Shown: positions 3,741 to 44,473, counted from the first letter of the stretch. The stretch is DNA of 64,000 nt from Candidatus Woesebacteria bacterium UBA1430 (GCA_002329465.1 DCTW01000005.1:4131-68130), one strand, 5' to 3'. Notes: generated from the sequence alone by a model not told the origin. A program made the numbers and translations.

Positions 3741-4158
3741 AACTATAAGTTTTTAAGAGATAACAAATTTCTTAAAAAAACAAAAAAAATAAAAGTTTTA
3801 AAATTAAAAAAACAGTAAAATTAAAAAAATTCGAACAATAAAATAAAGTATATAGTATAAACTAATTAATATTTTAGAGATTGTTGACAAAATGAGGATA
3901 ACATTAAAAAATTTAAGTCAAAAAAATGAATAAAAAATTTCAACAGAATTGTTAATTTTTAAAACGGTATAATTTAATTATTATAACTTATAGTAAAAGT
4001 GACAAAAAAATAAAAAAATCGGTATTACAAAAAGTCATAAAAACCAAACCAAATTTAGCTATAGGTTATTAATAAGAAAGCATTTTTATAATCCAAACAA
4101 AAATTGGTTATAAAAAGGCTCTAAAAAATATCAAAAAACCAAGTAATAAAGACAAAAA

Positions 4159-30126: not shown

Positions 30127-30159
30127 AAATGGATAAATTTATTATATAATAAATTTTCT

Positions 30160-30933
30160 ATGACCGAAGAGAGCGGTGAGCATCAAGATCCATATGATAT
30201 TAATCGTTTTCTTGATACATTTCTCACAGTTTATGAAGGACATCAAAACGAGCAGGGAACTTTATCTAGAGAAGATAGACCCAGGGAAGTAGCAGCAAAA
30301 GTTAGTTCGGTTGGTACAAAAGCCTACTCTTTAATAAATAGAGATCATGCGCCGGAAGAAATAATTCGCGACTTTGCAGACAAAGCACTGGGTAGAATAA
30401 TTGCAAAATATCCACAGGAAGCAGACCGGATTGCAAAAGCAGTAGGCGAAAATAAATATATTAGTCCTTATTCAAATGAAATTAATAAATATGCAGTAGA
30501 TGTAATAAATAGCCTGACCAGAAAGCAACTTGAAGATTTTACAGACGTTGAACTTGTAAATCTGGTCAGAATTGGTGGCGACAGAAATTCTGTTGTTGAA
30601 AAAATGAGAAAACTTCCTTACAAGGAAGGCTTCAGGCTTCGACTGGCTCAATCTTTGGTTTTTGGCGCGGGAGAAGTAGAGGATTTTCAAAAAATGTCTC
30701 ATGTTATAGGCACAACCTGGGCTGGCATTATTCAACGTCTTGATTATCCGTCTAAACAGGAAGAAAAAATAAAATTAGATGAAGCAAGGTCTCTTATGGA
30801 TCAATCTGTCGTTTTCATAAAAGAAAATTTGCCCGGAATAAGCGAAGAAGACTTAAGAGAATATTTTTATTCTGATCGCACACCCGATGCTATCCAAAAG
30901 CTTATTGAACACACCGGCTTCTCACTGGAATAA
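30160..30933 (+). CDS. Hypothetical protein.
   Basis: A 257-aa ORF with no recognised motif. Confidence 0.4.
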   Translation: MTEESGEHQDPYDINRFLDTFLTVYEGHQNEQGTLSREDRPREVAAKVSSVGTKAYSLINRDHAPEEIIRDFADKALGRIIAKYPQEADRIAKAVGENKYISPYSNEINKYAVDVINSLTRKQLEDFTDVELVNLVRIGGDRNSVVEKMRKLPYKEGFRLRLAQSLVFGAGEVEDFQKMSHVIGTTWAGIIQRLDYPSKQEEKIKLDEARSLMDQSVVFIKENLPGISEEDLREYFYSDRTPDAIQKLIEHTGFSLE

Positions 30934-30962
30934 TTTGCCTTTCCAAGTAGATTTGTAAGTTT

Positions 30963-31586
30963 TTAAACCTTCGTCACCTGAAGAAAATCAAGTTCAACCG
31001 GGGTCTCTCTTCCAAAAATAGAAACAAGCACTTTTACCTTTCCTTTTTCCTCATCAACCTCGTTTATTGTTCCAAGAAAATCGCTAAAAGGCCCATCCGT
31101 AATTTTAACGGCTTCTCCGACGGATAGCTTTGTCTTAAACCTGGGAGCAGGAGATGAAATAAACTTTTGGATATTTGAAACCTCGCTTTCCGAAAGGGGA
31201 GTCGGCTGGTTTCCGATTCCCACAAATCCCGTTATTCCGGGAGTTGTCCTCACGGCAAGCCAGCTATTATCATCCAATATCATTTTTACAAGCAAATACC
31301 CCGGGAAAATTTTTTCCTTAATATTTGCCTTTTTGCCTCCCCTTACTATCACCCTGTCTTGAGTAGGCACAAGAAGTTCAAAAATCCGCTCTTTTAAATT
31401 CATAGACTCAACTCTCTGCCTCAAAGTTTCGGCAACTCTTACTTCATGTCCGCTTGCGGTGTGAACAACATACCACTTGGCATTTTCGTCCGAAGTTTTG
31501 CTAACTACAATATGCCCGGGAATTTTTTTCTTTCCCGTGCCTTTTTCGTAAACGCTTTCTTCTTTTTTATTCTGATCTGTATCCAT
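30963..31586 (-). CDS. nusG: Transcription antiterminator NusG.
   Basis: The NGN domain '[11 protein letters not shown]' and a C-terminal KOW domain are present. Confidence 0.9.
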
Positions 31587-31591
31587 GTATC

Positions 31592-31777
31592 TTATTTTGC
31601 AATTATTAGCTCAACCAATTTTGTAAAGGCTATATCAAGCCCGCCAAGATATGCGCCCACAATAGCTGAAATCAAAAAAACTACAGCAGTAAGCCTAACC
31701 ACCTCATCCTTTTTTGGCCAATCAACTCTGTCAAGCTCACCCTTAACTTCCTTTAAATAGCCAATTACTGCTTTCAC
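31592..31777 (-). CDS. secE: Preprotein translocase subunit SecE.
   Basis: A 61-aa single-transmembrane protein immediately upstream of nusG. Confidence 0.75.
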
Positions 31778-31855
31778 AGTTAGCTATTTTATAACATTTA
31801 AGTAAAAATCACAACAAAAAGGGCGTAGAACAAATAAGGTATAATATATCAAAAT

Positions 31856-32275
31856 ATGTCTAGTAAAGCAGAGAGGCTGCGTCGAGCAAAGTCTGCTGTT
31901 AGCCAGGCAGAAAGAAAAAGGAAAGCAAATTCAATCGACACAAATAGCGATGAGTATAAAAAAATATATACTCATTTTATTCCTATTGTCTTTAATTTAG
32001 ACGTAAGCTCTGCGGATCAGGCAGATTATTGGACAAATCTTGAGCCCGATAACCCCATGACGCTTCAGACCGCTTGTTTGCGAATGAAGATTAATGGAGT
32101 AACACACGAAGATTTAGCAAGACACATTGTTTTGACAAACCCAAAAATAATGGCAGCTTTAGCTTTAGGCGGTTTAACAGATCCTCAAGTAAGAAGCGTA
32201 ATAGAAACACTTGCTAACGCAATTTTTGAGCATTATCCTCAAAACTACAAGGATGGATGGGAAAAGAAAGGGTAA
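31856..32275 (+). CDS. Hypothetical protein.
   Basis: A 139-aa ORF. Confidence 0.35.
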   Translation: MSSKAERLRRAKSAVSQAERKRKANSIDTNSDEYKKIYTHFIPIVFNLDVSSADQADYWTNLEPDNPMTLQTACLRMKINGVTHEDLARHIVLTNPKIMAALALGGLTDPQVRSVIETLANAIFEHYPQNYKDGWEKKG

Positions 32276-32915
32276 AGGCCTGCCCGACTTTAGCTACGAA
32301 TCAAAATTTTGGGAAAAAGGGCTTTTAGTTGGGGGAGCGGATGAGGTAGGTAGAGGCGCTCTCGCAGGCCCTGTAATGGCAGGATTTGTAGTATTTAAGC
32401 CAAAAACAAAGCTCGAAGTGGAAATTAACGACTCAAAGCTTCTTTCTCCGCGAAAAAGGGAAGAAGCAAGTCTCTGGATAAAACAAAACGCTCTTTTGTG
32501 GGCGATAGGAGAGTCCGATGTTAATACAATAAACCAAAAAGGCATTGTAAAAGCCACCCAAAAAGCTTTTCGCCGCGCCATTAGCCATCAATCATCAATC
32601 ATTAACCATTTACTTCTTGATGCCTTTTATGTTCCTTATATCAATGGAATAGGCAAAAAAAATCAAACCCCAATCGTTAAAGGGGATCAAAAGGCTATTT
32701 CAATCGCCGCCGCATCAATAATTGCAAAAGTTGAAAGGGATGCAATAATGACATTTCTTTCAAAACAAAAAACGCTAAAAATCTATGCATGGGACAAAAA
32801 TAAAGGCTACGGCACCAAAGCCCACAAAGAAGCAATCATTCGCTTTGGTCCATCAAAAGAGCATAGAAAACTCTTTATCAGTTCTTTCTTTTCTCAAGCT
32901 CAATCTGAAATCTGA
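32253..32915 (+). CDS. rnhB: Ribonuclease HII.
   Basis: The motifs 'VGGADEVGRGALAGPV' and 'DSKLLS' are present. I took the start at the internal ATG 'MDGKRKG' rather than the track start at 32211. Confidence 0.8.
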   Translation: MDGKRKGKGLPDFSYESKFWEKGLLVGGADEVGRGALAGPVMAGFVVFKPKTKLEVEINDSKLLSPRKREEASLWIKQNALLWAIGESDVNTINQKGIVKATQKAFRRAISHQSSIINHLLLDAFYVPYINGIGKKNQTPIVKGDQKAISIAAASIIAKVERDAIMTFLSKQKTLKIYAWDKNKGYGTKAHKEAIIRFGPSKEHRKLFISSFFSQAQSEI

Positions 32916-33069
32916 CTCTCTTTTTTCTTTCGGCACGCTCCTCGGATTTTTTCTTGTATCTTTCCCGGTCTCTAAACTCTGGGATAATCCCGGAAGATAT
33001 TACCTTTTTTCGAAACCTCGCAATTAATTTTTCGTCTGATTCCCCCTTTTTCTTTTTGACGACGACCAT
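32878..33069 (-). CDS. rpsU: Ribosomal protein S21.
   Basis: The motif 'LIARFRKKVISSGIIPEFRDRERYKKKSEERAERKK' is present. Confidence 0.75.
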   Translation of the reverse strand: MVVVKKKKGESDEKLIARFRKKVISSGIIPEFRDRERYKKKSEERAERKKRVRFQIELEKRKN

Positions 33070-33229
33070 TTATAATTTCGCCTCCTTTCATCAAAGCAAT
33101 AAAATTATCTTTCATAAAGCCATCACCTAAAGCCAATTTTAGCAAATTATACTTCAAAAATCATTCCCTAAATTAATTTTCTTGCTTTCCAAAATTATTT
33201 TGGTATATGATTAATCTAGTCCTATATGT

Positions 33230-33943
33230 ATGGCAAATTTTAAAAAGATTAAGCCGCATTATCTTCTGGGTGTATTTTTAATTTTCTTTTTTGTCATTTC
33301 TTTAGCTATAGCCTTAGTTTTAGTACAAAAATCAAAAGAAACATCTGAATCAAAAGCGGCTGCAACAGCAACTCTAAGTATTGCTCCACAAACATCTGTG
33401 CTTTCTCAAAATCAAAACCAGGAATATAAAATAATGCTTAATTCCTCGGTCCAAAACGAAAAAATATTTTTTGTGCGTGTTGACATCGAATTTGATAAAA
33501 ACGCACTCAATTTAGTTAGTATAACTCCTTCGGAAAATTTTGTAATTCCTCAAAAAACCAGCGGAGAAAGCCTGGTTAGTACTCCGGCAGAAGCCAACTC
33601 AAGTGGCAAGTTTTATGCCGTTTTTGTTGTGCCTTCTGATAAATTCTCAAGCGCTCCATTGGGGAATTTCGAAGTGGCAAGCTTTACACTTAAAGGCGTT
33701 GCTTCTACTAATTCAAGCAGCATTTCATTCATCACAAATTCTATGCAGGTAGTAAGCCTTAATAGCGACCCAAATCAAAGAAATCTTATTATCTCACCTC
33801 AAAACGCTTCGGTTACCGTAGGCTCGGGAGCCTCGAGTAGTCCGTCGCCCGATGATGCCAGAGCGGATATTAACAGCGACGGTATAGTAAATTTACTTGA
33901 TTATATAATCCTTTTGGAAAATTTTGGGAAACGTTTTAACTAA
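33230..33943 (+). CDS. Secreted or anchored protein with a cohesin-like domain and a C-terminal dockerin-like repeat.
   Basis: There is an N-terminal transmembrane/signal segment. The C-terminal motif 'DINSDGIVNLLDYIILLENFG' has the dockerin calcium-binding repeat pattern. Confidence 0.5.
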   Translation: MANFKKIKPHYLLGVFLIFFFVISLAIALVLVQKSKETSESKAAATATLSIAPQTSVLSQNQNQEYKIMLNSSVQNEKIFFVRVDIEFDKNALNLVSITPSENFVIPQKTSGESLVSTPAEANSSGKFYAVFVVPSDKFSSAPLGNFEVASFTLKGVASTNSSSISFITNSMQVVSLNSDPNQRNLIISPQNASVTVGSGASSSPSPDDARADINSDGIVNLLDYIILLENFGKRFN

Positions 33944-35123
33944 TATGAAAATTGGAAATAAAGCTCTTTTCATAATTTTTACTCTATTTATTCTTTTAGG
34001 AATTGCCTCAGCGGTTTTCTTAAGTCAAAAAACCCAAATAACCACCAAAAAAACCGCCCCTGCAACACAGCTTTCTTTGGTAGGTGACAAAGCAGCCAGG
34101 CTAAGCGAAGAATATAATCTCTCCGTAAATATGGAAACAGGCGAAAACAATGTAGTGGGAGCCGAGCTATATATTGATTATGACCCGGAATTTCTTGAGC
34201 CTACTGCGGTTTCAAAAGGAGCTTTTATGCAGTCCGCCGATGTAATAGGCCCAAGAATCGAATCGGGGGAGATCTTTTATACACTTATAGTAAAGCCAAA
34301 CGACACACCTGTTACTGGAAGTGGAACTATAGCCCAAATTACTTTTAAGACCCTAAAAACCGGAAACACAAATATTAGTCTAAACGAAGGGAAAACACTG
34401 GCAGTAGCAGTAGGGGAAGGAAGTGTTAATGTAATCACAAAATATTCACCTTTAAGCCTAAATATTTATAACACGTTTGTATCTTTGCGCTTAAGCCCCG
34501 ATAAATCCGGATACAATGTAGGTGACGAAGTTATAATTTATGCCTGGGTAAATAGTGGAGGAGTAGATTTGGTGGGGATCGAAATGTTTATAAAGTACGA
34601 TTCCAATATGCTTCGCTTTGAAAAAGCAGACGCGCTTGATTATTTCCAAAATCCGGATATTGTAGGTCCCAATGTTAACACTGAAGCGGGCACAATCCAC
34701 TATACACAAATTCTTCCTCCCGAAAATCACAACACAAAAGAGCAGGGGAACATTGCTGCCTTCACCTTCACGGCTCTAAAAAGCGGCCAGTCAAGCTTGT
34801 CGTTTATAAATCAGCAGACAATCGCAGTAGCCTATGGCCAAGGCCAGCAAAACGTGCTGAAAGAAGCCTTTCCGGCTGAAGTTTTCGTATCGGGCGCTAC
34901 GGCCTCGCCCGGTCCTTCATTGAGCCCGAGCCCGACTCCGGGCGGAGTTATTCCGGGCGATATAAATAGGGACGGCAAAGTAGATATCCTGGACTACACA
35001 CTTCTTCTTGAGTATTTTAGTAAAGAATCGTCAGCCTATCCCAATGCGGATCTGAATGCAGATGGCAAGATCAACCTTTTGGATTATATAGTACTTTTCG
35101 AAAATTTCGGCGCTTCTTCATAA
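33924..35123 (+). CDS. Secreted protein with two cohesin-like domains and a C-terminal double dockerin-like repeat.
   Basis: The cohesin-like blocks are 'IDYDPEFLEPTAVSKGAF…IAQITFKTLKTGNTNISL' and 'IKYDSNMLRFEKADALDYF…AAFTFTALKSGQSSLSF'. The dockerin-like repeats are 'GDINRDGKVDILDYTLLLEYF' and 'DLNADGKINLLDYIVLFENFG'. Confidence 0.55.
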   Translation: MGNVLTNMKIGNKALFIIFTLFILLGIASAVFLSQKTQITTKKTAPATQLSLVGDKAARLSEEYNLSVNMETGENNVVGAELYIDYDPEFLEPTAVSKGAFMQSADVIGPRIESGEIFYTLIVKPNDTPVTGSGTIAQITFKTLKTGNTNISLNEGKTLAVAVGEGSVNVITKYSPLSLNIYNTFVSLRLSPDKSGYNVGDEVIIYAWVNSGGVDLVGIEMFIKYDSNMLRFEKADALDYFQNPDIVGPNVNTEAGTIHYTQILPPENHNTKEQGNIAAFTFTALKSGQSSLSFINQQTIAVAYGQGQQNVLKEAFPAEVFVSGATASPGPSLSPSPTPGGVIPGDINRDGKVDILDYTLLLEYFSKESSAYPNADLNADGKINLLDYIVLFENFGASS

Positions 35124-35654
35124 ATGCCAAAAATTCGGATAAAAATTTTTTTGATTGGAATAGCGATTATCGCATTGTCGATTTTTGTTTATTTTACTTT
35201 TTCTTCAAAAAACAATGATTCAGAAGATGGCTTTGATGCAGTTTTTAGCGGGCACGAAAAAGCTTGGCAAAAAGGGGAGATCAATTCGCTTACAATATCG
35301 CTCAAAGAGGGAGTCGGAAAAGACTCCTTTCTTCACGCAGTAGCATTTACCATAAGTTTTGATCCAGAAACGCTCGAGCCGATATCTGTCCATGAAGGCA
35401 CAATCTGGAGCAAAACAAACAAACTCGAAGAAAAGATAGATCATTCCCTCGGATTAATCAAAGTAAGCTACGGAATGGCTTTTGATGGAGAGATTGTTGA
35501 AGGTGCAAAAACGCTCGCTTCGTTCGAATTTAAAGTAATTGGTGATAAGAATGAAGTCGAGATAATTCCACTTGCAAAAAGTGCAGCGCGCATGGGCGAG
35601 CGCGATTACCTTTGGATAAATCTAAAACCGGCTATCCTAAAGATAAAACAATAA
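35124..35654 (+). CDS. Small cohesin-like secreted protein.
   Basis: An N-terminal transmembrane/signal segment is followed by 'TISFDPETLEPISVHEGTIW…ASFEFKVIGDKNEVEI'. Confidence 0.45.
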   Translation: MPKIRIKIFLIGIAIIALSIFVYFTFSSKNNDSEDGFDAVFSGHEKAWQKGEINSLTISLKEGVGKDSFLHAVAFTISFDPETLEPISVHEGTIWSKTNKLEEKIDHSLGLIKVSYGMAFDGEIVEGAKTLASFEFKVIGDKNEVEIIPLAKSAARMGERDYLWINLKPAILKIKQ

Positions 35655-35794
35655 CACCAAAAAGCATCACTAATGCACCTACAATCCTTTCTTTTAATTC
35701 TCGCTCTCCCAAAAATACGCTACCCATAATTATCGTAAATATCATACTTAGCTTAAAAACAGCTGTTGCATTGAAGTGTTATAATATTTCCATT

Positions 35795-36838
35795 ATGGGC
35801 GAAGATCCAGGAAGTCCCCGTGATCCGGAACGCCGATATGCGCGCGTCGATGCTACTCTAAATTACAGAAAAGAACTGGAAGAGAATCTAAACGTGGCTT
35901 ATCCGGAAATAACATGGGAAAATATTGACGATTTTAGAAACGGCAAGATCCCCTTCGGTTCAATTAATCTGAAAGAAAAAGATATAAAATTAATAGGCAA
36001 TGTTTTAACATCTGCACTAGAAAGAGCTTCAGATCCACAAGATGTCGCACACAGCACCCACGGTGCAGAGCACGATGTCTATCAAGAAACTTTATCTGTT
36101 TTAGCAGAACATATTGAAGAAGGACAATATTCGATTAGAAGGTCTCGCTCCTACATTAAAATAACCACAGATGCCGGAATCGAAAGAATTCCGATTGAAA
36201 GATTTGTTCTCGAGGGACAACAATTTTTAAGAACCACTTATCGTCCCGAAGCTATTGAAGAGGCGGAATCCTTAAAAAAAGAAAACGACCTTAAAAAAGT
36301 AAATAAAGAGCTAAGAAGAATATGTTTGAGCCGTGGCGTGCCTTACGGCATTCTCGTAGCTACTTATTTTGGATTTAGCCATGACAATATTTTCTCGTTT
36401 TTTGCTGAACCAAACTTTCAAAAAAGCTTAAAAGATGAACTTGGAGATAAAATCAAAATTCCTACACGCAATCGAAAACAAGATGCAAATATGCTTCGTC
36501 AGCTGTCAAACAATATAGTTGTTAGGACAGCAAGTGGCGAAATTTATCCCCAAAGATCAGCCGATGCGCACCAAAAAGGCCTAGAAACTCTTCTCCATTT
36601 CGGGTGGATAGAAAAAGATCAAGTTAGGAAACCGCCGTTATTAATGAAAGAAGTTGAAGACCTGGCTACCCCCAAGGCAATTCTCGTTGGGATGACAGAG
36701 GCGGCACAAAGAAGAGCCTCGAAATCGTATAAAGATCCAGACAAATCCGAATACATATTAGACGAATATTCTAATGTTTCGACAACGATGGTTGTCACGG
36801 CTTATCTGGAAATCCAACCGGTGGACAGTAACGCCTAG
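35795..36838 (+). CDS. Hypothetical protein.
   Basis: A 347-aa ORF taken from the ATG at 35795. The track start at 35612 overlaps the previous gene. Confidence 0.4.
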   Translation: MGEDPGSPRDPERRYARVDATLNYRKELEENLNVAYPEITWENIDDFRNGKIPFGSINLKEKDIKLIGNVLTSALERASDPQDVAHSTHGAEHDVYQETLSVLAEHIEEGQYSIRRSRSYIKITTDAGIERIPIERFVLEGQQFLRTTYRPEAIEEAESLKKENDLKKVNKELRRICLSRGVPYGILVATYFGFSHDNIFSFFAEPNFQKSLKDELGDKIKIPTRNRKQDANMLRQLSNNIVVRTASGEIYPQRSADAHQKGLETLLHFGWIEKDQVRKPPLLMKEVEDLATPKAILVGMTEAAQRRASKSYKDPDKSEYILDEYSNVSTTMVVTAYLEIQPVDSNA

Positions 36839-37233
36839 TTAATTCCCTTAAACGCCTGTCGGGCAAGCCAGTTTGAAAAAGATATTGCAAAACCGCAAGC
36901 CAAAGCCCAAGTAAAACGAGAAACTCCAAATCCGCTTACATCAGCCGCTCTTGCGGTAAGCCAAACCCCGGCACCGGCCGCCAGCCAATAATAAAGAAAC
37001 ATCGCGTATCTGCCTTTTTTATTTAAATTAAAAGTCTTTGCCAACCCCTTTGCCATAAATAGAAGCACAGTTAAAAAAAATCCCGAAAATATTGCAGCGG
37101 ATGGGGTAGTAATATATTCATTCCCAAGCTCAAACATATCAGGAAACAGCGAGTCAGCAAGCGACAAAACAAGGGCATTAAGAGTCCAGTATCCGATAAA
37201 CTTTATACAAAATTTTTTATCCACTTTCCTCAC
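36835..37233 (-). CDS. Hypothetical membrane protein.
   Basis: A 132-aa ORF with four hydrophobic helices. Confidence 0.4.
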   Translation of the reverse strand: MRKVDKKFCIKFIGYWTLNALVLSLADSLFPDMFELGNEYITTPSAAIFSGFFLTVLLFMAKGLAKTFNLNKKGRYAMFLYYWLAAGAGVWLTARAADVSGFGVSRFTWALACGFAISFSNWLARQAFKGIN

Positions 37234-37352
37234 CCCCTTGCTTAAAAAAACATTCCTACATTCAGAATAGAATTATCACAAGATTCCTGTCAAATTAGAA
37301 ACAATCTGGCACGAAACCAGCTCATTTGATGTTGAAAGATTGGGGTAATTTC

Positions 37353-37919
37353 TCAATCCACTTTCTTCAATAAATTTAGCGTATTGATGAAAATTTCATC
37401 ACCATAAGCTATATCCTGAAATATCTCTGGATGAAATTGAAACCCGTATATTGATTTTGTTTTATGTTTTATCACTTCATAACCTGTTTCAGATTTAGCT
37501 AAACCATGAAGTTCTTCAGATAAAGTCTCTATTGCTATTTTATGGTTTTCATACGCGGTGAAAATTTTTGTTTCTCCAAAAATACCATCAGCATTAACAA
37601 CTTCTACATTGACAAGGCCTTTTTGTTTATCTGGTAAAGTTGAGAGTTTTGCCCCGAAGGCGTAGGAGACAATCTCAGCACCGAGGCAAACTCCTAAAAC
37701 TGGTTTGTTTGTTTTTTTAACCAGTTCTATTTCTTTCTGATAATCTTCTGGGTGTTCAGTAATGTAAGTATGATGACCCCCTGACAGGACTACTAAGTTG
37801 TAGTCGTCTTCGTTGAAATCGTATTTTGAACTTATCACTTTTACTTGCCCGAACTTAGTTAATAAAGATTCTAGATGGGGGAGATACGAAGTCTTATTGT
37901 CTATAAGAAGTATGTTCAT
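37353..37919 (-). CDS. Class I glutamine amidotransferase-like protein.
   Basis: The nucleophile elbow 'GVCLGAEIV' and the motif 'YGFQFHPE' are present. Confidence 0.7.
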   Translation of the reverse strand: MNILLIDNKTSYLPHLESLLTKFGQVKVISSKYDFNEDDYNLVVLSGGHHTYITEHPEDYQKEIELVKKTNKPVLGVCLGAEIVSYAFGAKLSTLPDKQKGLVNVEVVNADGIFGETKIFTAYENHKIAIETLSEELHGLAKSETGYEVIKHKTKSIYGFQFHPEIFQDIAYGDEIFINTLNLLKKVD

Positions 37920-37954
37920 AAAATTAACTATATCAATTTAAGACTTAAAGCGAA

Positions 37955-38030
37955 ATGCGATTTAGGGAAAGTGACTTCAAAATTCAATCCTCCTCAGGGC
38001 TGAGGACAGTTTGATATAGTTTTGTGAGGC
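37955..38030. repeat. Direct repeat B1, about 70 bp and about 80% identical to B2 at 40612-40680.
   Basis: The motif '…ttcaatcctcctcagggctgaggacagtttgatatagttttgtgaggctacaaaaaatgcagg' matches the sequence abutting the tRNA-Trp 3' end. It contains the palindrome 'cctcagggctgagg'. Confidence 0.6.
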
Positions 38031-38093
38031 TACAAAAAATGCAGGGGTTAGTAAACTTAGTCAGGAACTTCTATGTTAGTATAAATTATCTAA

Positions 38094-38414
38094 ATGTTAC
38101 TAAAGATAATTATTATCATAAATTTAGTTTGGCAGTCAGTTTTTCTAATAGGAGCAGTTGAGTCAATTAGTAAACTAAGCAAACTAGTGACTGGACACAC
38201 ATTCACTTTTGGTTATCTTTGGCTCACCTTGCTTTGGGGTTTTGGAGTGTCTGCAAACTTGCTTCTCTTAATTTATTTGCTGAAAACTAAGAAAAATATT
38301 GAGATAAAAAAACAAGTTATTATTGGTTTACTATTGGTAATGATACCAATCACTATTTCTTACATTATTGGGGGCTACTATCAACTAAACCTCATCAATA
38401 TTGTTTCGCAATAG
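38094..38414 (+). CDS. Small hypothetical membrane protein.
   Basis: A 106-aa ORF with three hydrophobic helices. Confidence 0.35.
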   Translation: MLLKIIIIINLVWQSVFLIGAVESISKLSKLVTGHTFTFGYLWLTLLWGFGVSANLLLLIYLLKTKKNIEIKKQVIIGLLLVMIPITISYIIGGYYQLNLINIVSQ

Positions 38415-38424
38415 CCTAGGCTCT

Positions 38425-38545
38425 AATCGAGGTTAAAGTGCAGGCTTTGGTTGCCAGACTTCGAACAATTTGGTGTGAATTAAACACTTTTGAGATTGGG
38501 AAAATAGGCCAGTTTGTCAATCCAGAACCAGCTTTTAGTTTTAGT
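38425..38545. repeat. Direct repeat A1, about 115 bp and about 88% identical to A2 at 39785-39905.
   Basis: 'ggctttggttgccagacttcgaacaatttggtgtgaatt…aaaataggccagtttgtcaatccagaaccagctttt' is repeated upstream of both the 38570 and 39918 genes. Confidence 0.65.
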
Positions 38546-38569
38546 TGATTTCAAGTAAAATATCAGCAG

Positions 38570-39184
38570 ATGGATATGACAAAACTGATTTTGGTTAGAC
38601 ATGGTGAAACAGAAGTTAATGTTAAGGGTAAAATTCACAAATACGGGGACTCTGAACAGTTAACAAAAAAAGGGATTTCGCAGATTGGTAAAACCTCGCA
38701 GGCACTAAAGAAATATCAACCATCCGTTGTATATTGTTCTAAAGAAGAGCGTGCCAAACAGTCAGCAAAAATAATTTCGGATAAGTTGGGCATCCCCTTA
38801 GTTGAAGTAGAAGGACTTGAAGAAAGGAACTGGGGAGACTTTGCTGGTTTATCTTTTCAGGAAATAAAAGAAAAGGCTGGTATGGATAAAATGAGCTTTG
38901 AGGAAAGATACACTTTTCATCCTCCTAATGGAGAGTCGTGGCAGGAAACAGAAGATAGATTGTTAAAAACACTAAATGAAATCCTTTCTAAAAATCAAGG
39001 TAAAAATATAGTGTTAGTTACTCATGGCGGGTCTATTAGAATTTACATGCCCACTCTTTTAGGGGTTAATAAGGAAGAAAGTTACAAATACGACCCTGAC
39101 AATGCCTCAATTTCTGTATTTAGTTATCAAGATGACAAATTTTTCAAAATTATTTACAACGACACATCTCACTTAAATGATTAA
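38570..39184 (+). CDS. Histidine phosphatase (phosphoglycerate-mutase superfamily).
   Basis: The catalytic His motif is 'LILVRHGETEVN'. The C-terminal motif is 'LVTHGGSIR'. Confidence 0.75.
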   Translation: MDMTKLILVRHGETEVNVKGKIHKYGDSEQLTKKGISQIGKTSQALKKYQPSVVYCSKEERAKQSAKIISDKLGIPLVEVEGLEERNWGDFAGLSFQEIKEKAGMDKMSFEERYTFHPPNGESWQETEDRLLKTLNEILSKNQGKNIVLVTHGGSIRIYMPTLLGVNKEESYKYDPDNASISVFSYQDDKFFKIIYNDTSHLND

Positions 39185-39641
39185 GGCTCTATTATTTGAC
39201 TTTTCAAGAACAATTTTATTTCCCAAAGATAGGAGTTATCAGGGTGGATTAAACTCCTTACATAAAGAGATGTCATTGCGAGAAGGATATAACTTTCTTG
39301 ACCATTTTGAATTGGACGAACACTTGCTAGGTTATCTCAAAAGTGTAAAAAGTAAATACAAACTGTATATTTTTACTTCTGGTTCAGTTCAAAATGCTCC
39401 TGAAATTAAACCGCGACTTGATGAAATTTTTGACAAGATTTTTTCAGCTGAAGAAATTGGTTTAGCCAAGAACGACCCAAAAGCCTACGAGTATATTGCA
39501 GAAGCCATAGGATTAACTCCTGATGAAGTTCTCTTTACTGATGACACTGAAGAAAACATTAAGGCCGCTAAGTCTATTGGAATGAACACTACGCTTTACA
39601 AAGAGCTTGAGGAATTAAGACGGAAGATTAGTGAGGTATAG
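39177..39641 (+). CDS. HAD-superfamily hydrolase.
   Basis: Motif I is 'ALLFDFSRT'. The C-terminal motif is 'LFTDDTEENIKAAKSIGM'. Confidence 0.65.
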   Translation: MIKALLFDFSRTILFPKDRSYQGGLNSLHKEMSLREGYNFLDHFELDEHLLGYLKSVKSKYKLYIFTSGSVQNAPEIKPRLDEIFDKIFSAEEIGLAKNDPKAYEYIAEAIGLTPDEVLFTDDTEENIKAAKSIGMNTTLYKELEELRRKISEV

Positions 39642-39784
39642 AATAGAGAATAACACTGACATGGTGAAACTAAGACTAATTTCGCTGGTAAATTACACAA
39701 AGGTGATGATCCAAAAGAATTGACTGAATTAGGCAAAAAGCAAACAAGAATAATGGCAATGACTATTAAAAATTAACAAACCCG

Positions 39785-39905
39785 ATCTAGCCCAGAGTAG
39801 GCTTTGGTTGCCAGACTTCGAACAATTTAGTGTGAATTGAATAGCTTTGAGATTGAGAAAATAGGCCAATTCGTTAATCCAGAACCTGCTTTTAAGTTTG
39901 TTTAG
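39785..39905. repeat. Direct repeat A2, the partner of A1.
   Basis: See A1. Confidence 0.65.
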
Positions 39906-39917
39906 TTTTTGATATAG

Positions 39918-40607
39918 TTGTGGCTGATGAAGAAGTTGGCATTGTTTGATTTCGATAATGTTATATACAGGGGTCATTCTGTTTTTGATATTATTCAACT
40001 CATGGAAAAAGATGGTTTCATTCAACCAGTTATGTGGAAAGTGGTTGAAGAACAGTTGCATAAGTATAAAAGTAATGAGATTTCATATAAAGATGCTGCT
40101 GATAAAATGCTATTTTCTTGGGCAAAAGCCTTGGAATTTAGAAGTTATCAGTCAGCTTTAGATTATGTTCAAAATTACTTTACAAATAATCCGGACAAGT
40201 TTTTTGGCTGGTTTGAAACTATTAACCAGGTACTTAGCAAGAGTTATAATATTTTTATTATTAGTACTAACTATCAGTTTATTGCAGAAGCAGTCGTTAG
40301 CAGATTTGGATTGCGTGGTTATGTTTCATCTGTGGCGGGAGTAGAAAACGGTTTATTCACTGGTCAATTACAAAAATCGTTAGCTGGAAATAAAGGAGAG
40401 GTTGCATCAATTCTTAAATCCTATCCCAGAGATGATTCTGTTGCAGTTGGAGATTCAGAAAATGATATTGATGTGTTAGAGCGTGTTGATTATCCGATAT
40501 GTTTCCAACCTGATGAAAAACTCAAAATGGTTGCACAGCAAGAAGGCTGGAAATTGGCTGACGAAAATAGTATCCTACAGGTTTTTGATGAGATTTTAAA
40601 AGACTGA
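39918..40607 (+). CDS. HAD-superfamily phosphatase (phosphoserine-phosphatase-like).
   Basis: Motif I is 'LALFDFDNVIY'. Motif IV is 'VAVGDSENDIDVL'. Confidence 0.7.
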   Translation: MWLMKKLALFDFDNVIYRGHSVFDIIQLMEKDGFIQPVMWKVVEEQLHKYKSNEISYKDAADKMLFSWAKALEFRSYQSALDYVQNYFTNNPDKFFGWFETINQVLSKSYNIFIISTNYQFIAEAVVSRFGLRGYVSSVAGVENGLFTGQLQKSLAGNKGEVASILKSYPRDDSVAVGDSENDIDVLERVDYPICFQPDEKLKMVAQQEGWKLADENSILQVFDEILKD

Positions 40608-40611
40608 CTTA

Positions 40612-40680
40612 GCTTTAAAGTTCAATTCTCTTCAGGGTTAGGAATAGTTTGATGTAGTTATGTGAAGCAAAAGAAAATGC
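40612..40680. repeat. Direct repeat B2, immediately 3' of tRNA-Trp.
   Basis: See B1. The repeat ends at the tRNA discriminator base. Confidence 0.6.
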
Positions 40681-40750
40681 AGGCCTGGAGGGAATCGAAC
40701 CCCCGTCACGGGTTTTGGAGACCCGGGTCCTACCACTGAACGACAGGCCT
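40680..40750 (-). tRNA. tRNA-Trp (anticodon CCA).
   Basis: The reverse complement folds as a cloverleaf: acceptor AGGCCTG/CAGGCCT, anticodon stem CGGGT/ACCCG with loop CTCCAAA, and a T-arm GGTTCGATTCC. Confidence 0.85.
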
Positions 40751-40858
40751 AAGCACACATATTTTATCCCGAATCTCTCAGTCAGTCTAGTTTTCACCGC
40801 ATCCCCTCATCAAGTAGGCTTTTAAGATTATTAATACCGGAAGAACCATAAAGACATT

Positions 40859-41004
40859 GAAAAAAAGTAGGGGTAACTGCAAGTACTGGAGTGGTGCCTT
40901 CTTCCTTGAAATATAGTGCGAAGCCGGTTAAAGGTGAGCTACTTTGTCTTGCGAACGAGCCATTCGTGCGTAAAGGCTTGTCTTGGCAGGAGGGTGCTTA
41001 CCCC
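40859..41004 (-). ncRNA. Candidate structured small RNA (family unknown; 6S- or SRP-like architecture) with an enclosing helix and a 3' U-tract.
   Basis: On the minus strand, 5' 'GGGGUAA' pairs with 3' 'UUACCCC', followed by U7. Internally there is an extended imperfect helix (purine-rich 'CUUGGCAGGAGGGUG' against pyrimidine-rich 'GCCUUCUUCCUUG') and a local ACGA/UCGU hairpin. No ORF is present. Confidence 0.25.
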
Positions 41005-41025
41005 AAAAATTATTATAGCAATTAA

Positions 41026-41325
41026 ATGCAGCTTGCAAGAAGTAAAAAATTTTTTCTAATTTTAATTAAAAGGAGGTGTGTGATATTGAGCATAGAAAAT
41101 TTAGGAGAAAGAATAAATAGTCAAGCGCAATTAACCGTCAACGGAATAGAGCTTGACCCCGGCCAAAGATTTAATGCCGTAATTTTGGGAGTCGAGATAG
41201 CAGATTTAAATGTGCCACCGGCTGAAGTGGACAAAGAAGAACTTAGCGAAAGATTAACAACGATCGCAAGGCAAACGGGCGATCCCTTAACGGCGATTCT
41301 TGCCGCACAAATAGTAGAGGACTAA
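41026..41325 (+). CDS. Hypothetical small protein. The true start is probably the internal TTG or GTG after the strong SD 'AAAGGAGG', giving about 80 aa.
   Basis: The ORF translates as '…SIENLGERINSQAQLTVNGIELDPGQRF…'. An AGGAGG sits 9 nt before the internal TTG. Confidence 0.4.
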   Translation: MQLARSKKFFLILIKRRCVILSIENLGERINSQAQLTVNGIELDPGQRFNAVILGVEIADLNVPPAEVDKEELSERLTTIARQTGDPLTAILAAQIVED

Positions 41326-41816
41326 TAGGAGCCTTTGTTAAGAAGCCAATTGATAATATCGTCCTCCGGCGCATCAGAAAGGTCATCCTGGACTTCCGGA
41401 TTAGGACTATTTTCCCCGAACCGATTAAGGATTGAGTTATATTGCTCAACTGTTATCTCGCCATTATGAAGTGCAGCTGTTGCAGACATGGCAATTCTTT
41501 GAAATGCGGCGTTTCTTATTTTGGGATCGGGGCTCGTGGCTAGTTTATAGATATCCGAAGAGCAGTGATACGCTCCGCAAATAAAAGGCCTCCCACTCGC
41601 GTTTTCCAATACAAACCTACATCCCTGTCCATACAATTGATACTCACACGGCTCTCCTGCATTCTTTTTAAAATCAGAGTTTGCATCTCTTACCTCTAGA
41701 GCATAGCAGCAGCCGGTGCATAAACTACCATTTCCGGTTTCACAGATTGGCTCACCGCCCACTCCCACCATTCCGTGGATATTGGCATTCGGGTGATTGG
41801 GGTTGTATTCCACCAT
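41322..41816 (-). CDS. Cys-rich hypothetical protein translationally coupled to rpmG.
   Basis: A 164-aa ORF containing 'CETGNGSLCTGCCYALE', 'CEYQLYGQGCRF' and 'ICGAYHCSS'. Its start lies 2 nt after the L33 stop codon. Confidence 0.45.
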   Translation of the reverse strand: MVEYNPNHPNANIHGMVGVGGEPICETGNGSLCTGCCYALEVRDANSDFKKNAGEPCEYQLYGQGCRFVLENASGRPFICGAYHCSSDIYKLATSPDPKIRNAAFQRIAMSATAALHNGEITVEQYNSILNRFGENSPNPEVQDDLSDAPEDDIINWLLNKGSY

Positions 41817-41818
41817 TT

Positions 41819-41992
41819 TTATTTAAGCTTCGAAGATTCCTTGTGCTCAGTTATCTTTTTACAGAATTTGCAGTACTTTTTAAGCACAAGCTTCCCCTCC
41901 ATATTCACCTTATTTCGGGTGGTGATATAGTTTTGTCTCTTGCACTCGCTACAAACAAGCGCAACTATTTTATCTGTCCTCTTCTGAGCCAT
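41819..41992 (-). CDS. rpmG: Ribosomal protein L33 (zinc-ribbon type). It is 57 aa and so below the ORF-track length cutoff.
   Basis: The minus-strand translation is 'MAQKRTDKIVALVCSECKRQNYITTRNKVNMEGKLVLKKYCKFCKKITEHKESSKLK', carrying CxxC…CxxC. Confidence 0.8.
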   Translation of the reverse strand: MAQKRTDKIVALVCSECKRQNYITTRNKVNMEGKLVLKKYCKFCKKITEHKESSKLK

Positions 41993-42020
41993 GAATTAAC
42001 TGATAACTGATAACTTAATA

Positions 42021-42239
42021 CTATTTGTTGATTTTTCTTCTAAAACCATATAACTTTTTAAGTAACATCTCGCACTTGAGCGTGTACGCTTTATGCTTCG
42101 TCGATGAAATATACCTTAAATCATAACAAATATCCAGTACCGCTACAATTTCACCCAGTGATCCAATAGATATCATGAGATATCTAGAAAACTCCTTATC
42201 GGATTTCTTTATCAATCCCTCGGCAAGATTTAAAATCAC
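42021..42239 (-). pseudogene. Truncated four-helix-bundle protein of the 23S rRNA intervening-sequence family. Only the C-terminal half is present.
   Basis: 'NLAEGLIKKSDKEFSRYLMISIGSLGEIVAVLDICYDLRYIS…LLKKLYGF' matches the second half of the roughly 115-aa family. Upstream in frame there is a stop codon and no N-terminal half. Confidence 0.45.
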
Positions 42240-42283
42240 CGAAGTGCTCGCCCTTATATATAGGAAACTCCTGAAACCTCAAC

Positions 42284-42341
42284 ATCAGCAATCAGTTATT
42301 AGTAATAAGTAATAAGTCATCAGTCATTAGTCATCAGTCAT
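42284..42341. repeat. Tandem heptamer repeat, about 8 copies of AT(C/T/A)AGT(A/C/T) on the plus strand.
   Basis: The repeat reads 'atcagca atcagtt attagta ataagta ataagtc atcagtc attagtc atcagtc' and lies between tRNA-Thr and the truncated four-helix-bundle gene. Confidence 0.7.
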
Positions 42342-42344
42342 TTG

Positions 42345-42416
42345 AGCCTGAGGCGGGATTTGAACCCGCGACCCCTTTCTTACCAAGAAAGTGCTCTACC
42401 CCTGAGCTACCCAGGC
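42345..42416 (-). tRNA. tRNA-Thr (anticodon GGU).
   Basis: The reverse complement is 'GCCTGGGTAGCTCAGGGGTAGAGCACTTTCTTGGTAAGAAAGGGGTCGCGGGTTCAAATCCCGCCTCAGGCT'. The anticodon loop is TTGGTAA. Confidence 0.85.
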
Positions 42417-42468
42417 GATATAACACAAATTATACCTGCTCTTTCAAAATATAGTTTATACTAAGAAA

Positions 42469-43401
42469 ATGAAAATAGCAGCTTCAATTTTAGCATTTTT
42501 TATTTTTGTATTGGCAATTTCATCCTTGTTTCTTAATAAAAATATACCTAAGAGAACCCCTTCGCCCGAGTCCAAATCTCAGCAGGAATCAAAAGCTACA
42601 ATTCTTCTCGGAGGTGACGTAATGCTCGCTAGATCCGTAATGACAAAAAGTATTAAGGCAGGAGACTATGCTTATCCGTTTAGTAAAATCGCGGATTTTA
42701 CAAAAGACGCTGACATTTTTTTTGTTAATCTTGAAAACCCCATTGTATCCGGCTGTCCAAAAACAGATAGTGGATTTAAATTCTGCGCGGATCCAAAAAT
42801 GATCGAAGGTCTGTTATTCGCTGGAGTTGACGTTGTAACTCTTGCCAACAATCACGCGGGTAATTACGGGCAAGAAGGGATAGAAGAAACAAAAAAATTT
42901 TTGGACCAATCAGGCATAAAATTTGTCGGCTTTGATAATCTTGAAACAATAAAAGTAGGGGATATAAAAATAGGCCTTCTCGGATTAGATTTTTTAACAA
43001 ACACTCCTAAAGATTCGGATTTCAAGCTGATTTCAGAATCAAAAAAAGAAGTTGACTTTCTTGTTGTCGGTATCCACTGGGGAGTGGAGTATAGGTATGA
43101 GCCTGAAAGTTATCAAAAAGAGTTGGCTAAAAAAATAATCGAGAGCGGGGCGGACGCAATTGCTGGCCATCACCCGCACTGGGTACAAAAGATAGAGTAT
43201 ATAGAGGGAAAACCAATTTACTACTCGCTTGGTAATTTGGTTTTTGATCAAATGTGGAGCGAAGAAACAAAAAAAGGATTGTTAGTAAAACTTACAGTAA
43301 ACAAAAACGGTAAAATTGTAAACGAAGAATTCATAAAAACCTACATGAGCGCCTTCGCTCAACCGGAACTTGTGCCAAGGCCAGGATTCGAACCTGGGTA
43401 G
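42469..43401 (+). CDS. CapA/PgsA-family metallophosphatase-like protein (poly-gamma-glutamate capsule synthesis family).
   Basis: An N-terminal transmembrane segment and the motifs 'GGDVMLARS', 'LANNHAGNYG' and 'GHHPHWVQ' are present. The last ~29 nt of the ORF (about 10 codons) read through tRNA-Tyr, so the true stop or C-terminus is uncertain. Confidence 0.7.
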   Translation: MKIAASILAFFIFVLAISSLFLNKNIPKRTPSPESKSQQESKATILLGGDVMLARSVMTKSIKAGDYAYPFSKIADFTKDADIFFVNLENPIVSGCPKTDSGFKFCADPKMIEGLLFAGVDVVTLANNHAGNYGQEGIEETKKFLDQSGIKFVGFDNLETIKVGDIKIGLLGLDFLTNTPKDSDFKLISESKKEVDFLVVGIHWGVEYRYEPESYQKELAKKIIESGADAIAGHHPHWVQKIEYIEGKPIYYSLGNLVFDQMWSEETKKGLLVKLTVNKNGKIVNEEFIKTYMSAFAQPELVPRPGFEPG

Positions 43402-43457
43402 GCCTTTCGGCCGGCAGTTTTACAGACTGCTACGTTTGTCCACTCCGTCACCTTGGC
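43373..43457 (-). tRNA. tRNA-Tyr (anticodon GUA) with a long variable arm.
   Basis: The reverse complement is 'GCCAAGGTGACGGAGTGGACAAACGTAGCAGTCTGTAAAACTGCCGGCCGAAAGGCCTACCCAGGTTCGAATCCTGGCCTTGGCA'. Confidence 0.85.
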
Positions 43458-43477
43458 AAATCTTTATTTTTAACTTG

Positions 43478-43550
43478 AGCCTAGGGTGGGATTCGAACCC
43501 ACGACCCCATGTTTACAAAACATGTGCTCTAACCACTGAGCTACCCAGGC
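43478..43550 (-). tRNA. tRNA-Thr (anticodon UGU).
   Basis: The reverse complement is 'GCCTGGGTAGCTCAGTGGTTAGAGCACATGTTTTGTAAACATGGGGTCGTGGGTTCGAATCCCACCCTAGGCT'. Confidence 0.85.
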
Positions 43551-43627
43551 ACCTCAAAGCAATTTATGTGAATATTATATCAGCAAAGAAGATAATTTTT
43601 AATTTTGATTTTTAAACTTAACGGTAT

Positions 43628-43812
43628 GACCCCGCCGCGGGAACTAGGCGATTTCCTGGTACTAGACCAGGTGGGCTAGACTGGTCCGTCTCCCTCGGGA
43701 AATCGGACACCCGTCTGCTTCGAATTTCTTCGAAGCGCTCCGCCCTGAGCGGGGCTCCCGGAGTAATTTTTAGTCAGGAAATGTGCCTAGCTATCCTCCC
43801 TTTAGCAGGGTC
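43628..43812. ncRNA. Candidate structured non-coding RNA of about 185 nt, GC-rich. Family and strand unresolved; it lies between the M50 protease gene and the tRNA cluster.
   Basis: There is no ORF. Long-range pairs include 'gaccc…gggtc' at the termini and 'ctaggcgatttcctg' against 'caggaaatgtgcctag'. Local hairpins include 'gcttcgaa-tttc-ttcgaagc', 'gaccagg…ctggtc' and 'gccc-tgagc-gggc'. On the minus strand one hairpin has a GAAA tetraloop followed by 'GCAGAC'. Confidence 0.3.
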
Positions 43813-43834
43813 ATTATTATTATAACACGAAAAA

Positions 43835-44473
43835 TCAAAATGCCATTACACCGGGCAAGTATATAGAAAGAAGAAAATTAATTATTGGAGATAGTATCGT
43901 AAAAACAGGAGACACTCCGCTCCAAATGGGAAAAATGAGCAAAATTAGTATAAAAATTCCATACTGTTTTAAAAAAATATCTACCGTATGCGCGTCCTTT
44001 TCTGGCAAAAATCCGACAAGTATTTTCCCGCCGTCAAGGGGGTGAATGGGCAGTAGATTAAAAACGGCAAGGATAATATTCAAAAAAATAAAAGGTGTAA
44101 GTATTGTAGCAACTAGCGAAAAAGGCGTAACAACAAAATGAATTATTATAGATAAAATTGCGGCAAAAAAAAGATTGCTAAATGGCCCTGCCAGAGAAAT
44201 AATAGCCGCATCGCGCCTGGGGTTGGCCAAATTATACGGATCAAATTGCACAGGCTTTCCCCATCCGAAACGCACAATAAGAAGCATTAATGTCCCTAGC
44301 GGATCAAGGTGCGCCAGCGGATTTAATGTAAGCCTGCCCTGGATCTTCGGAGTAGGGTCTCCAAGCTTAACGGCAGTCCAAGCATGGGCAAACTCATGAA
44401 CCGTAATAGCCGAAACAAGGGCGGCTATCCATATTAAAAACGAGGCTGGATTGGATAAAAGTGTATCAAACAT
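43835..44473 (-). CDS. M50-family (site-2 protease-like) membrane zinc metalloprotease.
   Basis: The HExxH motif is 'HEFAHAWTA'. There are several transmembrane helices and the motif 'PLDGGKILVG'. Confidence 0.7.
   Translation of the reverse strand: MFDTLLSNPASFLIWIAALVSAITVHEFAHAWTAVKLGDPTPKIQGRLTLNPLAHLDPLGTLMLLIVRFGWGKPVQFDPYNLANPRRDAAIISLAGPFSNLFFAAILSIIIHFVVTPFSLVATILTPFIFLNIILAVFNLLPIHPLDGGKILVGFLPEKDAHTVDIFLKQYGIFILILLIFPIWSGVSPVFTILSPIINFLLSIYLPGVMAF

Follow-up and report, generated by a model that had tools for sequence, protein, structure and literature searches.

Alternative occupants of a tRNA-Trp locus in a Candidatus Woesebacteria bacterium: a strain-variable phosphatase islet and an HNH/tRNA-Trp cassette

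Two alleles at the tRNA-Trp locus

Here we describe a variable tRNA-Trp locus in a 64-kb stretch of DNA from Candidatus Woesebacteria bacterium UBA1430 (DCTW01000005.1:4131-68130, one strand; hereafter the window, and all coordinates without a contig prefix are window positions). Directly 3' of the resident tRNA-Trp gene (T1) lies a 2.6-kb block of phosphatase genes, the islet, which is bracketed by the two copies (A1 and A2) of a direct repeat, and the original prediction had taken this arrangement as the possible remnant of an integrated element with the repeat copies as attL and attR. We found that the islet is a real strain-variable block bounded by the end of tRNA-Trp, and that in near-identical strains the same slot is taken by a gene of the HNH endonuclease type and a complete, different tRNA-Trp gene (T2). 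The prediction is thus partly supported: a strain-variable block at a tRNA end is present, while a duplicated tRNA 3' segment, near-identical repeat copies (A1 and A2 are 79-80% identical, depending on the comparison) and, among the ORFs checked, an integrase are not, and the repeat is no attL/attR pair of a self-mobile element. In our reading the locus is a replacement hot spot for tRNA-Trp, with the islet and a homing-type HNH/tRNA cassette as alternative occupants. With moderate confidence we take it that recombination, with the tRNA gene as its anchor, set the islet between tRNA-Trp and the trailer that originally followed it.

Contigs of the same species were retrieved by exact-protein look-ups, and most of them carry the islet (L003, L006-L014, L022 and L024-L027). 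It is absent from two, L001 (JGI 3300005254) and L002 (SRR5506739), the flanks of which are ~99% identical to the window. A blastn comparison of L001 with the window shows that homology ends at position 40712, which lies in the T1 anticodon stem-loop on its 3' side, and restarts at 38045, exactly at the outer edge of A1. The islet thus behaves as one separate block at tRNA-Trp that varies between strains. No mismatch was found in 1660 nt of flank on the side of the glutamine amidotransferase (GATase) gene, the protein product of which is identical in both alleles, while the last 2.4 kb of the opposite flank contain only three, of which one falls in the tRNA remnant.

Where the islet is missing, the GATase gene had been expected to abut tRNA-Trp directly. 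This is not the case, as the slot in L001 and L002 is not empty but holds 548 bp: the 5' half of T1, ending ...CTCCAAAAC, is followed by 38 nt that form a hairpin with anticodon-loop bases, by a 149-aa open reading frame (ORF) of the HNH type and by T2. The latter is 69% identical to T1, scores 70.7 bits with the Rfam tRNA model and overlaps the stop codon of the 149-aa ORF; its 3' end CCTGC directly abuts A1, the sequence of which is the same in both alleles. In the sequence compared each allele therefore has one intact tRNA-Trp gene, and the remnant of T1 in the HNH allele bears one extra substitution. Neither the HNH gene nor T2 was found elsewhere in the window. Because T2 ends directly on A1, the 5-nt stub that precedes A1 in the window marks the position of a tRNA-Trp 3' end, and A1 and A2 are consequently trailers that belong to two positions of tRNA-Trp. 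The first bases of contig L005 are precisely CCTGC, and contig L028 ends one base before the substitution in T1; this coincidence of assembly breaks with allele boundaries suggests that both alleles co-occur in some samples.

A second difference between strains lies 2.3 kb from the islet (window ~35655-35790, breakpoint 35770/35771). Contigs with the HNH allele carry an intact gene for a 291-aa EamA transporter at this place (L001 12151-12948), which the window lacks. No more than a 45-aa EamA remnant was seen, on contig L041 of the same species. Position 35770 is the start or the end of several contigs, and in the contigs read the EamA deletion accompanies the islet allele.

Repeat A is a tRNA-Trp trailer

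A repeat search returned A1 and A2 as a direct repeat of 71 nt with 79% identity and a spacing of 2638, in which MAFFT concurs. The repeat next to tRNA-Trp had thus been recognized correctly, with about the right identity and essentially the right coordinates for the right copy, while the left copy had been placed at 37955-38030, which is 15-20 nt off. When each copy was compared with the whole window by local blastn, its partner was the only match (E ~2e-12), so the pair is neither a chance similarity nor a multi-copy repeat of this window. Both copies contain the identical 10-nt run aaaatgcagg (38036-38045 and 40674-40683), and both indeed include the last bases of the tRNA as had been claimed; however, only 4-5 nt of the repeat belong to the tRNA (CCTGC in tRNA sense), the other ~66 nt being 3' trailer. 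With only 5 nt of tRNA in it, repeat A is not a duplicated tRNA 3' segment.

We searched the window and 76 fetched loci with an nhmmer profile of the trailer and obtained matches only behind tRNA-Trp ends, directly after '...CCTGC'. Together with the uniqueness of the pair in 64 kb this confirms that repeat A is not a generic intergenic repeat, and two copies in 64 kb are not what a many-copy intergenic repeat or a miniature inverted-repeat transposable element would give. Within 36000-44000 Rfam returned only tRNAs at E up to 1 and no match for repeat A or for a second repeat of the islet, B. No intrinsic terminator was predicted in A, and a promoter scan of it performed no better than on shuffled sequences.

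The trailer in related species

Orthologues of the HAD-IB phosphatase gene that adjoins A2 were found with 84% (L066/L067) and 77% (L068) amino acid identity, in each case preceded by a B-like element and followed by a trailer of type A. L068 carries a third kind of tRNA-Trp, which abuts the trailer, and the trailer is then followed by the HAD-IB gene. In L066/L067 the trailer has a tRNA stub on one side and the HAD-IB gene on the other; the stub of L067 comprises 8 nt with a T1-type end (AGGCCTGC) and is separated from a tRNA-Trp with a different acceptor stem by a 177-aa deoxyinosine-glycosylase-like gene, which scores just under the family cut-off. On the other side of the islet, orthologues of the GATase with 75% (L070) and 72% (L071) identity are both preceded by remains of the trailer. 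These are clear in L070, where a stub GGCCTGC and a shortened trailer precede the GATase gene, while in L071 the resemblance was seen by eye only and the trailer is apparently split by a 111-aa gene. A stub followed by a trailer, as at A1, thus recurs independently in L067 and in L070. As the linkage of trailer and HAD-IB gene and that of stub, trailer and GATase gene are each kept in related species, the trailer is a feature of the locus rather than the end of an element.

Trailers of different species are 76-83% identical to each other, and A1 and A2 with 80% fall within this range. T1 and the tRNA of L068 share 67% identity, whereas A2 and the L068 trailer share 83%. The tRNA bodies have hence diverged more than the trailer attached to them, the reverse of what vertical descent would give, which argues for repeated swaps of the tRNA ahead of a trailer that was conserved. 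At other T1 loci the 3' end of the tRNA is likewise found again as a direct repeat 0.1-2 kb downstream; these repeats measure 17-27 nt with 95-100% identity in L044, L045, L047 and L057, and 51 nt with 73% identity in L050. They bracket 0-3 unrelated ORFs, none of which, judged by length, is of integrase size. These repeats in other lineages indicate that the 3' site of tRNA-Trp is a recurrent insertion target in the clade. The inserts include, as judged by eye, glycosyltransferase-, methyltransferase- or Fic-like ORFs. A search of the GTDB species genomes with the HAD-IB protein gave distant matches only and no usable locus.

Upstream of the stub, trailer and GATase gene, L070 (193-262) and L071 (38-95) share a conserved element of 55-70 nt, GGAGGGATGAGAA…GAGCGCAGYCGAA…ATTCCYTCC. 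Its 3' end resembles a decayed T-arm and acceptor of tRNA-Trp, although it has no Rfam match and was not called by ARAGORN, and it may be a second, older tRNA relic or a small RNA.

The HNH/tRNA-Trp cassette

The 149-aa ORF of the islet-less allele matches PHROG 2255 'HNH endonuclease' (E 4.6e-29) and belongs to a homing-endonuclease family, its activity being putative. Its homologues number more than 3,200, and those with names, which are few, come from Patescibacteria; from these source names we take the label Patescibacteria-like. The surrounding DNA was read for homologues with 67% (P0003, loci L015-L018), 62% (P0018, L019 and L020) and 47% identity (P0059, L073-L075). In all three of these further lineages a tRNA-Trp gene is located on the same strand as the HNH gene, either a few to 16 nt downstream or overlapping with it. 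In L019/L020 and L073/L074 the HNH gene itself follows just downstream of the gene for ribosomal protein L33, and a fourth homologue (P0004) is likewise found downstream of L33.

The leader of the HNH gene contains a remnant of a tRNA-Trp anticodon loop, (GG)TCTCCA(AA), which pairs with a downstream (TT)TGGAG, in four of four lineages. The T1-type 5' half is complete in L015 and cut at the same position as in L001, while the remnants in L019 and L073 are decayed. The conserved leader hairpin CUCCA(AA)...(UU)UGGAG is located at L001 9317-9364, L015 3405-3454, L019 505-560 and L073 2455-2500, and it might control translation of the HNH gene or processing of the transcript. UGG, the codon for Trp, occurs in the 3' strand of the hairpin, (UU)UGGAG.

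When JGI metagenomes were searched for the 5' half of T1 as a pattern, 31 loci (L035-L065) were obtained, 30 of them with intact T1 and one, on the L015 contig, with the cassette. The cassette is a presence/absence polymorphism at a single site within ~99% identical flanks and is patchy among relatives. From these arrangements we infer, as the simplest reading, a mobile hairpin-HNH-tRNA-Trp cassette which would enter the resident tRNA-Trp gene and bring a replacement along; the HNH protein is accordingly predicted, from sequence alone, to cleave T1.

We also considered that the HNH allele could be a group I intron and rejected this, as no intron family was matched in Rfam (L001 9100-10100 at E up to 5; L015 and L019 at E up to 0.5) and there is no 3' exon, the ORF running into a complete separate tRNA instead. 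Searches of viral contigs with the HNH protein and with T2 gave no match, and the one result obtained with the 3' end of T1, a tRNA array on a phage contig of 153 kb, has no bearing on the locus. A PDB sequence search with the HNH protein gave no useful match. In L068 a 223-aa ORF (3138-3809, minus strand) with a weak N-terminal helix-turn-helix match overlaps the 5' end of the divergent tRNA-Trp gene, as the HNH ORF of the cassettes overlaps its tRNA; its motifs resemble those of LAGLIDADG endonucleases, but an assignment to them was not supported by searches of Pfam, PHROGs and PDB.

Gene content of the islet

The features of the locus are listed in Table 1. As had been reported, the islet contains a histidine phosphatase and two HAD hydrolases, and its four genes are all oriented on the plus strand, opposite to tRNA-Trp. 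The small protein that had been called a membrane protein is a 106-aa protein which we can describe as hydrophobic by eye only. Repeat B (115 nt, 84-85% identity depending on the aligner), a truncated second histidine phosphatase gene and the mosaic nature of the islet had been overlooked.

Table 1. Features of the variable tRNA-Trp locus, in window positions.
Feature	Position	Strand	Remarks
Class-I glutamine amidotransferase (GATase)	37353-37919	-	Pfam PF00117 E 1e-24; co-directional with the tRNA, first gene past the variable slot
A1	37975-38045	-	5-nt tRNA 3'-end stub (38041-38045, CCTGC) + 66-nt trailer; 55 nt upstream of GATase start
Allelic segment	38046-40711	.	T1 3' half + A2 + whole islet; swapped for 548 bp in L001/L002
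106-aa protein, no family match	38094-38414	+	hydrophobic by eye
B1	38437-38551	+	84-85% identical to B2; upstream of His_Phos gene
Histidine phosphatase, branch 1 (His_Phos_1), 204 aa	38570-39184	+	Pfam PF00300 E 1e-49
Short HAD-IA-like hydrolase, 154 aa	39177-39641	+	Pfam PF00702 + PF13419, NCBIfam HAD-SF-IA; overlaps His_Phos stop by 8 nt
His_Phos gene fragment, second copy	39658-39780	+	~codons 9-46, 'HGETKTNFAGKLH...', both ends truncated
B2	39794-39908	+	~115-nt conserved element directly upstream of HAD-IB gene
HAD-IB family phosphatase, 226 aa, SerB or histidinol-phosphatase-like	39927-40607	+	Pfam PF12710 E 2.7e-12; NCBIfam HAD-SF-IB above cut-off
A2	40613-40683	-	last 5 nt of T1 + 66-nt trailer; 5 nt past stop codon of convergent HAD-IB gene
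tRNA-Trp(CCA) "T1", resident	40679-40750 (ARAGORN) / 40680-40750 (Rfam, 61.2 bits)	-	

The internal repeat B and the truncated second histidine phosphatase gene identify the islet as a mosaic of at least two modules, one made up of the 106-aa gene, B1, the histidine phosphatase gene and the HAD-IA gene, the other of B2, the HAD-IB gene and A2. The gene fragment between them was recognized through a direct repeat (D3, 73% identity with 38598-38641) and is a scar of the junction between the two modules. The G+C content across the islet is 0.32-0.37, compared with 0.39 for the window, and the neighboring GATase region is equally low.

B2 terminates in a TGATATAGT box ~10 nt before the ATG of the HAD-IB gene. 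The B element is kept upstream of the HAD-IB gene in three species (L067 1-135; L068 2170-2330) and holds an open frame of ~36 codons (…ALV..LRTIW..LN.F…P.P…) with a weak codon-position bias (14/9/16); in B2 this short frame is interrupted by an in-frame stop (TAG), while it is open in B1, L067 and L068. B could represent a short ORF ahead of the HAD-IB gene, the remaining tail of a gene now lost, or regulatory sequence. A structured RNA is not supported, as the alignment folds with -7.4 kcal/mol and an unfavorable covariation term.

Integrase search and wider locus

We found no integrase, recombinase or transposase gene in the islet and its neighbors, in the Pfam-annotated region of ~30-50 kb or among 20 further ORFs of the window, while ~20 more ORFs at 2.7-29 kb were judged to be housekeeping genes by eye only. 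Within this scope the statement that no integrase is present at the islet stands. A gene for DprA (DNA_processg_A) is located at 50777-51436, so the organism may be able to take up and recombine foreign DNA.

The usual bacterial order of tRNA-Thr/Tyr/Thr, L33, tRNA-Trp, secE, nusG, L11 and L1 is split in the window (29500-43600), where ~9 kb of accessory genes lie between tRNA-Trp and secE-nusG. Besides the islet and the GATase gene, these include genes for RNase HII, cohesin/dockerin proteins and a holin-like protein. The interval is occupied by other genes in relatives, which indicates that the whole stretch behind tRNA-Trp is plastic. In another organism (L069, 1-2116 and 9442-11088) a pair of HAD-IA and HAD-IB genes, the latter 63% identical to that of the window, is flanked by large serine recombinase genes, and related phosphatase pairs can hence be cargo of recombinase-bearing elements. 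Further away in the window, a 2378-aa ORF (10589-17725) appears by eye to encode a repeat-rich secreted protein.

Discussion

How could one locus come to hold either of these two blocks? In the sequence of events that we propose, A1 and A2 would be two copies of a clade-specific tRNA-Trp trailer, A2 belonging to the resident T1 and A1 with its 5-nt stub being the mark of an older or alternative position of tRNA-Trp. Recombination anchored in the conserved tRNA gene would have put the 2.6-kb block between tRNA-Trp and its original trailer A1. The incoming DNA, presumably from a related lineage, would have come with a tRNA end and a trailer (A2) of its own, and the repeat would then be a by-product of tRNA-gene replacement rather than a duplicated att core. 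In near-identical strains the same slot would be filled by the hairpin-HNH-T2 cassette as a homing-type selfish element, which would break T1 in its anticodon stem-loop, on the 3' side, use the tRNA promoter and supply a replacement tRNA-Trp. The observations themselves comprise the repeat, the two alleles with their breakpoints, the linkage of HNH gene and tRNA-Trp in four lineages and the conserved trailer at tRNA-Trp ends; what we infer is the direction of these events, the mechanism of recombination and the cleavage of T1 by the HNH protein.

Several points weigh against this proposal. The right junction lies at the extreme 3' end of the tRNA in three independent cases (the window, L067 and L070), which looks more site-specific than illegitimate recombination predicts and makes a recombinase acting in trans conceivable. 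The 5-nt stub taken by itself could be due to chance at roughly the 1% level, and the Pfam HNH model matches the 149-aa ORF only weakly (E 0.11). The islet-less allele is known from two assemblies (3300005254 and SRR5506739), which possibly derive from one sample. An empty junction, with T1 joined directly to A1 (T1...CCAGGCCTGC followed by ATTTTTTGTAGCC; also ...GATTCCCTCCAGGCCTGC followed by ATTTTTTGTAGCCTCAC), was seen in none of the 21 contigs that contain the neighboring 164-aa protein, and with no such allele at hand the order of events is a matter of deduction.

Taken jointly, the observations may point to an undescribed selfish element of Patescibacteria-like bacteria, consisting of an HNH gene and its own tRNA-Trp, a view which we put forward tentatively. 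Such an element would invade the resident, possibly the only, tRNA-Trp gene on the 3' side of its anticodon stem-loop, where it would use the tRNA promoter, and the host would come to depend on the tRNA supplied by the cassette, which would make the cassette hard to lose. Repeated rounds, along with other insertions at the 3' end of the tRNA, would turn the trailer into a slot for small integrase-less blocks, and the stub with A1 would be the scar of one such round.

Classical site-specific integration at the tRNA-Trp 3' end through the 10-bp core CCTGCATTTT, with A1 and A2 as attR and attL and the integrase supplied in trans or lost, is in our judgement unlikely. It would account for the exact junction, since the allelic breakpoint lies on the 10-bp core and the exact aaaatgcagg run opens both copies, and the 17-27-nt tRNA-end repeats around inserts of 0.1-2 kb in L044, L045, L047 and L057 as well as the recombinase-flanked HAD-IB homologue of L069 are in line with it. 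Only 5 nt of the repeat are tRNA, however, and the further 61 nt of similarity, which extend past any plausible core, are left unexplained. Neither an empty site nor a circle junction (...TTTACTAACCCCTGC followed by ATTTTCTTTTGC; also ...AAGTTTACTAACCCCTGC followed by ATTTTCTTTTGCTTCAC) was seen, and the ORFs checked in the window include no integrase. The linkage of the trailer with the HAD-IB gene in two other species moreover suggests a native context rather than the arm of an element, and the islet is a mosaic with internal scars.

We also hold it to be improbable that the trailer had been duplicated in place by the time of an ancestor of the genus, with the phosphatase genes between the copies and inherited vertically. 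In that case the arrival of the HNH/tRNA-Trp cassette would be the only recent event, and its repair or recombination would have used A1 and deleted the 3' half of T1, A2 and the islet. A1 and A2 have diverged as far from each other as the trailers of different species, both linkages of the trailer, with the HAD-IB gene and with stub and GATase gene, exist in relatives at 72-84% protein identity, and the extra substitution in the T1 remnant of the HNH allele is to be expected after recent inactivation, all of which fits such a history. However, no relative was found in which a single contig, and contigs are short here, has the two linkages together, the gene order around both blocks varies between species, and the stub before A1 would still require an earlier event that destroyed a tRNA. 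In addition, the HAD-IB gene with its trailer has 87% DNA identity to L067, compared with ~67% for the adjacent L33 gene, and although this is one short gene, the difference hints at exchange rather than vertical descent.

That the copies are similar by chance, or belong to a generic repeat of promoters or intergenic regions, can be practically dismissed: both copies of A hold a TGATATAGT-like box that is also found upstream of other genes, but the pair is unique in 64 kb at E ~2e-12 and its 66-nt sequence is conserved at tRNA-Trp ends and nowhere else in the 76 loci.

What appeared to be a decayed island provides direct evidence of a tRNA locus with two alleles that exclude each other within one population, each with a different tRNA-Trp gene, in uncultured bacteria with small genomes. 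If a homing element does replace an essential tRNA here, this would be a new strategy of a selfish gene, which destroys its target and supplies a substitute. It would also explain why, from species to species, the bodies of tRNA-Trp vary more than the non-coding trailer that follows, and it would offer an integrase-free route for the gain and loss of accessory genes beside a tRNA.

Comparison with known systems

In tRNA-associated islands attL and attR derive from the 3' part of the tRNA gene, and their direct repeats are typically 15 nt or more in length and near-identical. Integrase subfamilies are reportedly distinguished by crossover sites in the anticodon loop, in the T-loop or at the 3' end of the tRNA (a distinction said to go back to Williams in 2002). 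The locus described here resembles such islands in that an accessory block lies immediately 3' of the tRNA, the repeats touch the tRNA 3' end, the block is variable among close strains, and other lineages of the clade have 17-27-nt repeats of the tRNA end. It differs from them in that the repeat is nearly all trailer and 79% identical, the ORFs checked include no integrase, the 'empty' state is filled by another cassette, and other species have conserved the trailer as part of the locus.

Homology-facilitated illegitimate recombination during natural transformation is said to have been described in 2002 by de Vries and Wackernagel and by Prudhomme et al. A conserved tRNA anchor and a junction of a few bases (CCTGC) would likewise insert related DNA without an integrase, and DprA is encoded in the window. 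The junction lies at the tRNA 3' end in three lineages, however, a regularity greater than illegitimate joins lead one to expect.

Free-standing homing endonucleases are found in tRNA regions of phages, for instance SegB of T4, and the expression of mobE and segB is regulated by hairpins (PMC2988022). The HNH ORF is similarly free-standing, polymorphic and placed in a tRNA locus, with a hairpin in its 5' leader and flanking DNA that travels along. In contrast to SegB, the HNH cassette appears to be chromosomal in a Patescibacteria-like host, to interrupt the target tRNA gene and to bring a complete replacement tRNA with the same specificity. SegB belongs to the GIY-YIG enzymes and its cleavage site is intergenic, while the gene at issue here is an HNH ORF with predicted cleavage activity.

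Group I introns in the anticodon loops of bacterial tRNA genes carry homing endonuclease genes (PMC3984707). Set against such introns, the HNH allele is alike in the break next to the anticodon loop, the endonuclease ORF inside and the pairing of the 5' side, which resembles a P1 helix. It differs in that no ribozyme core was detected with Rfam, only 38 nt separate the break from the ORF, a whole independent tRNA takes the place of a 3' exon, and the 5' half of T1 and the 3' half of T2 pair poorly as judged by eye.

Both tRNA-linked variable islets and free-standing homing endonucleases are known kinds of elements. Our literature search for an HNH/tRNA-Trp cassette in Patescibacteria found no description, and to our knowledge a nuclease gene with a replacement tRNA that competes with an integrase-less block for one slot is new.

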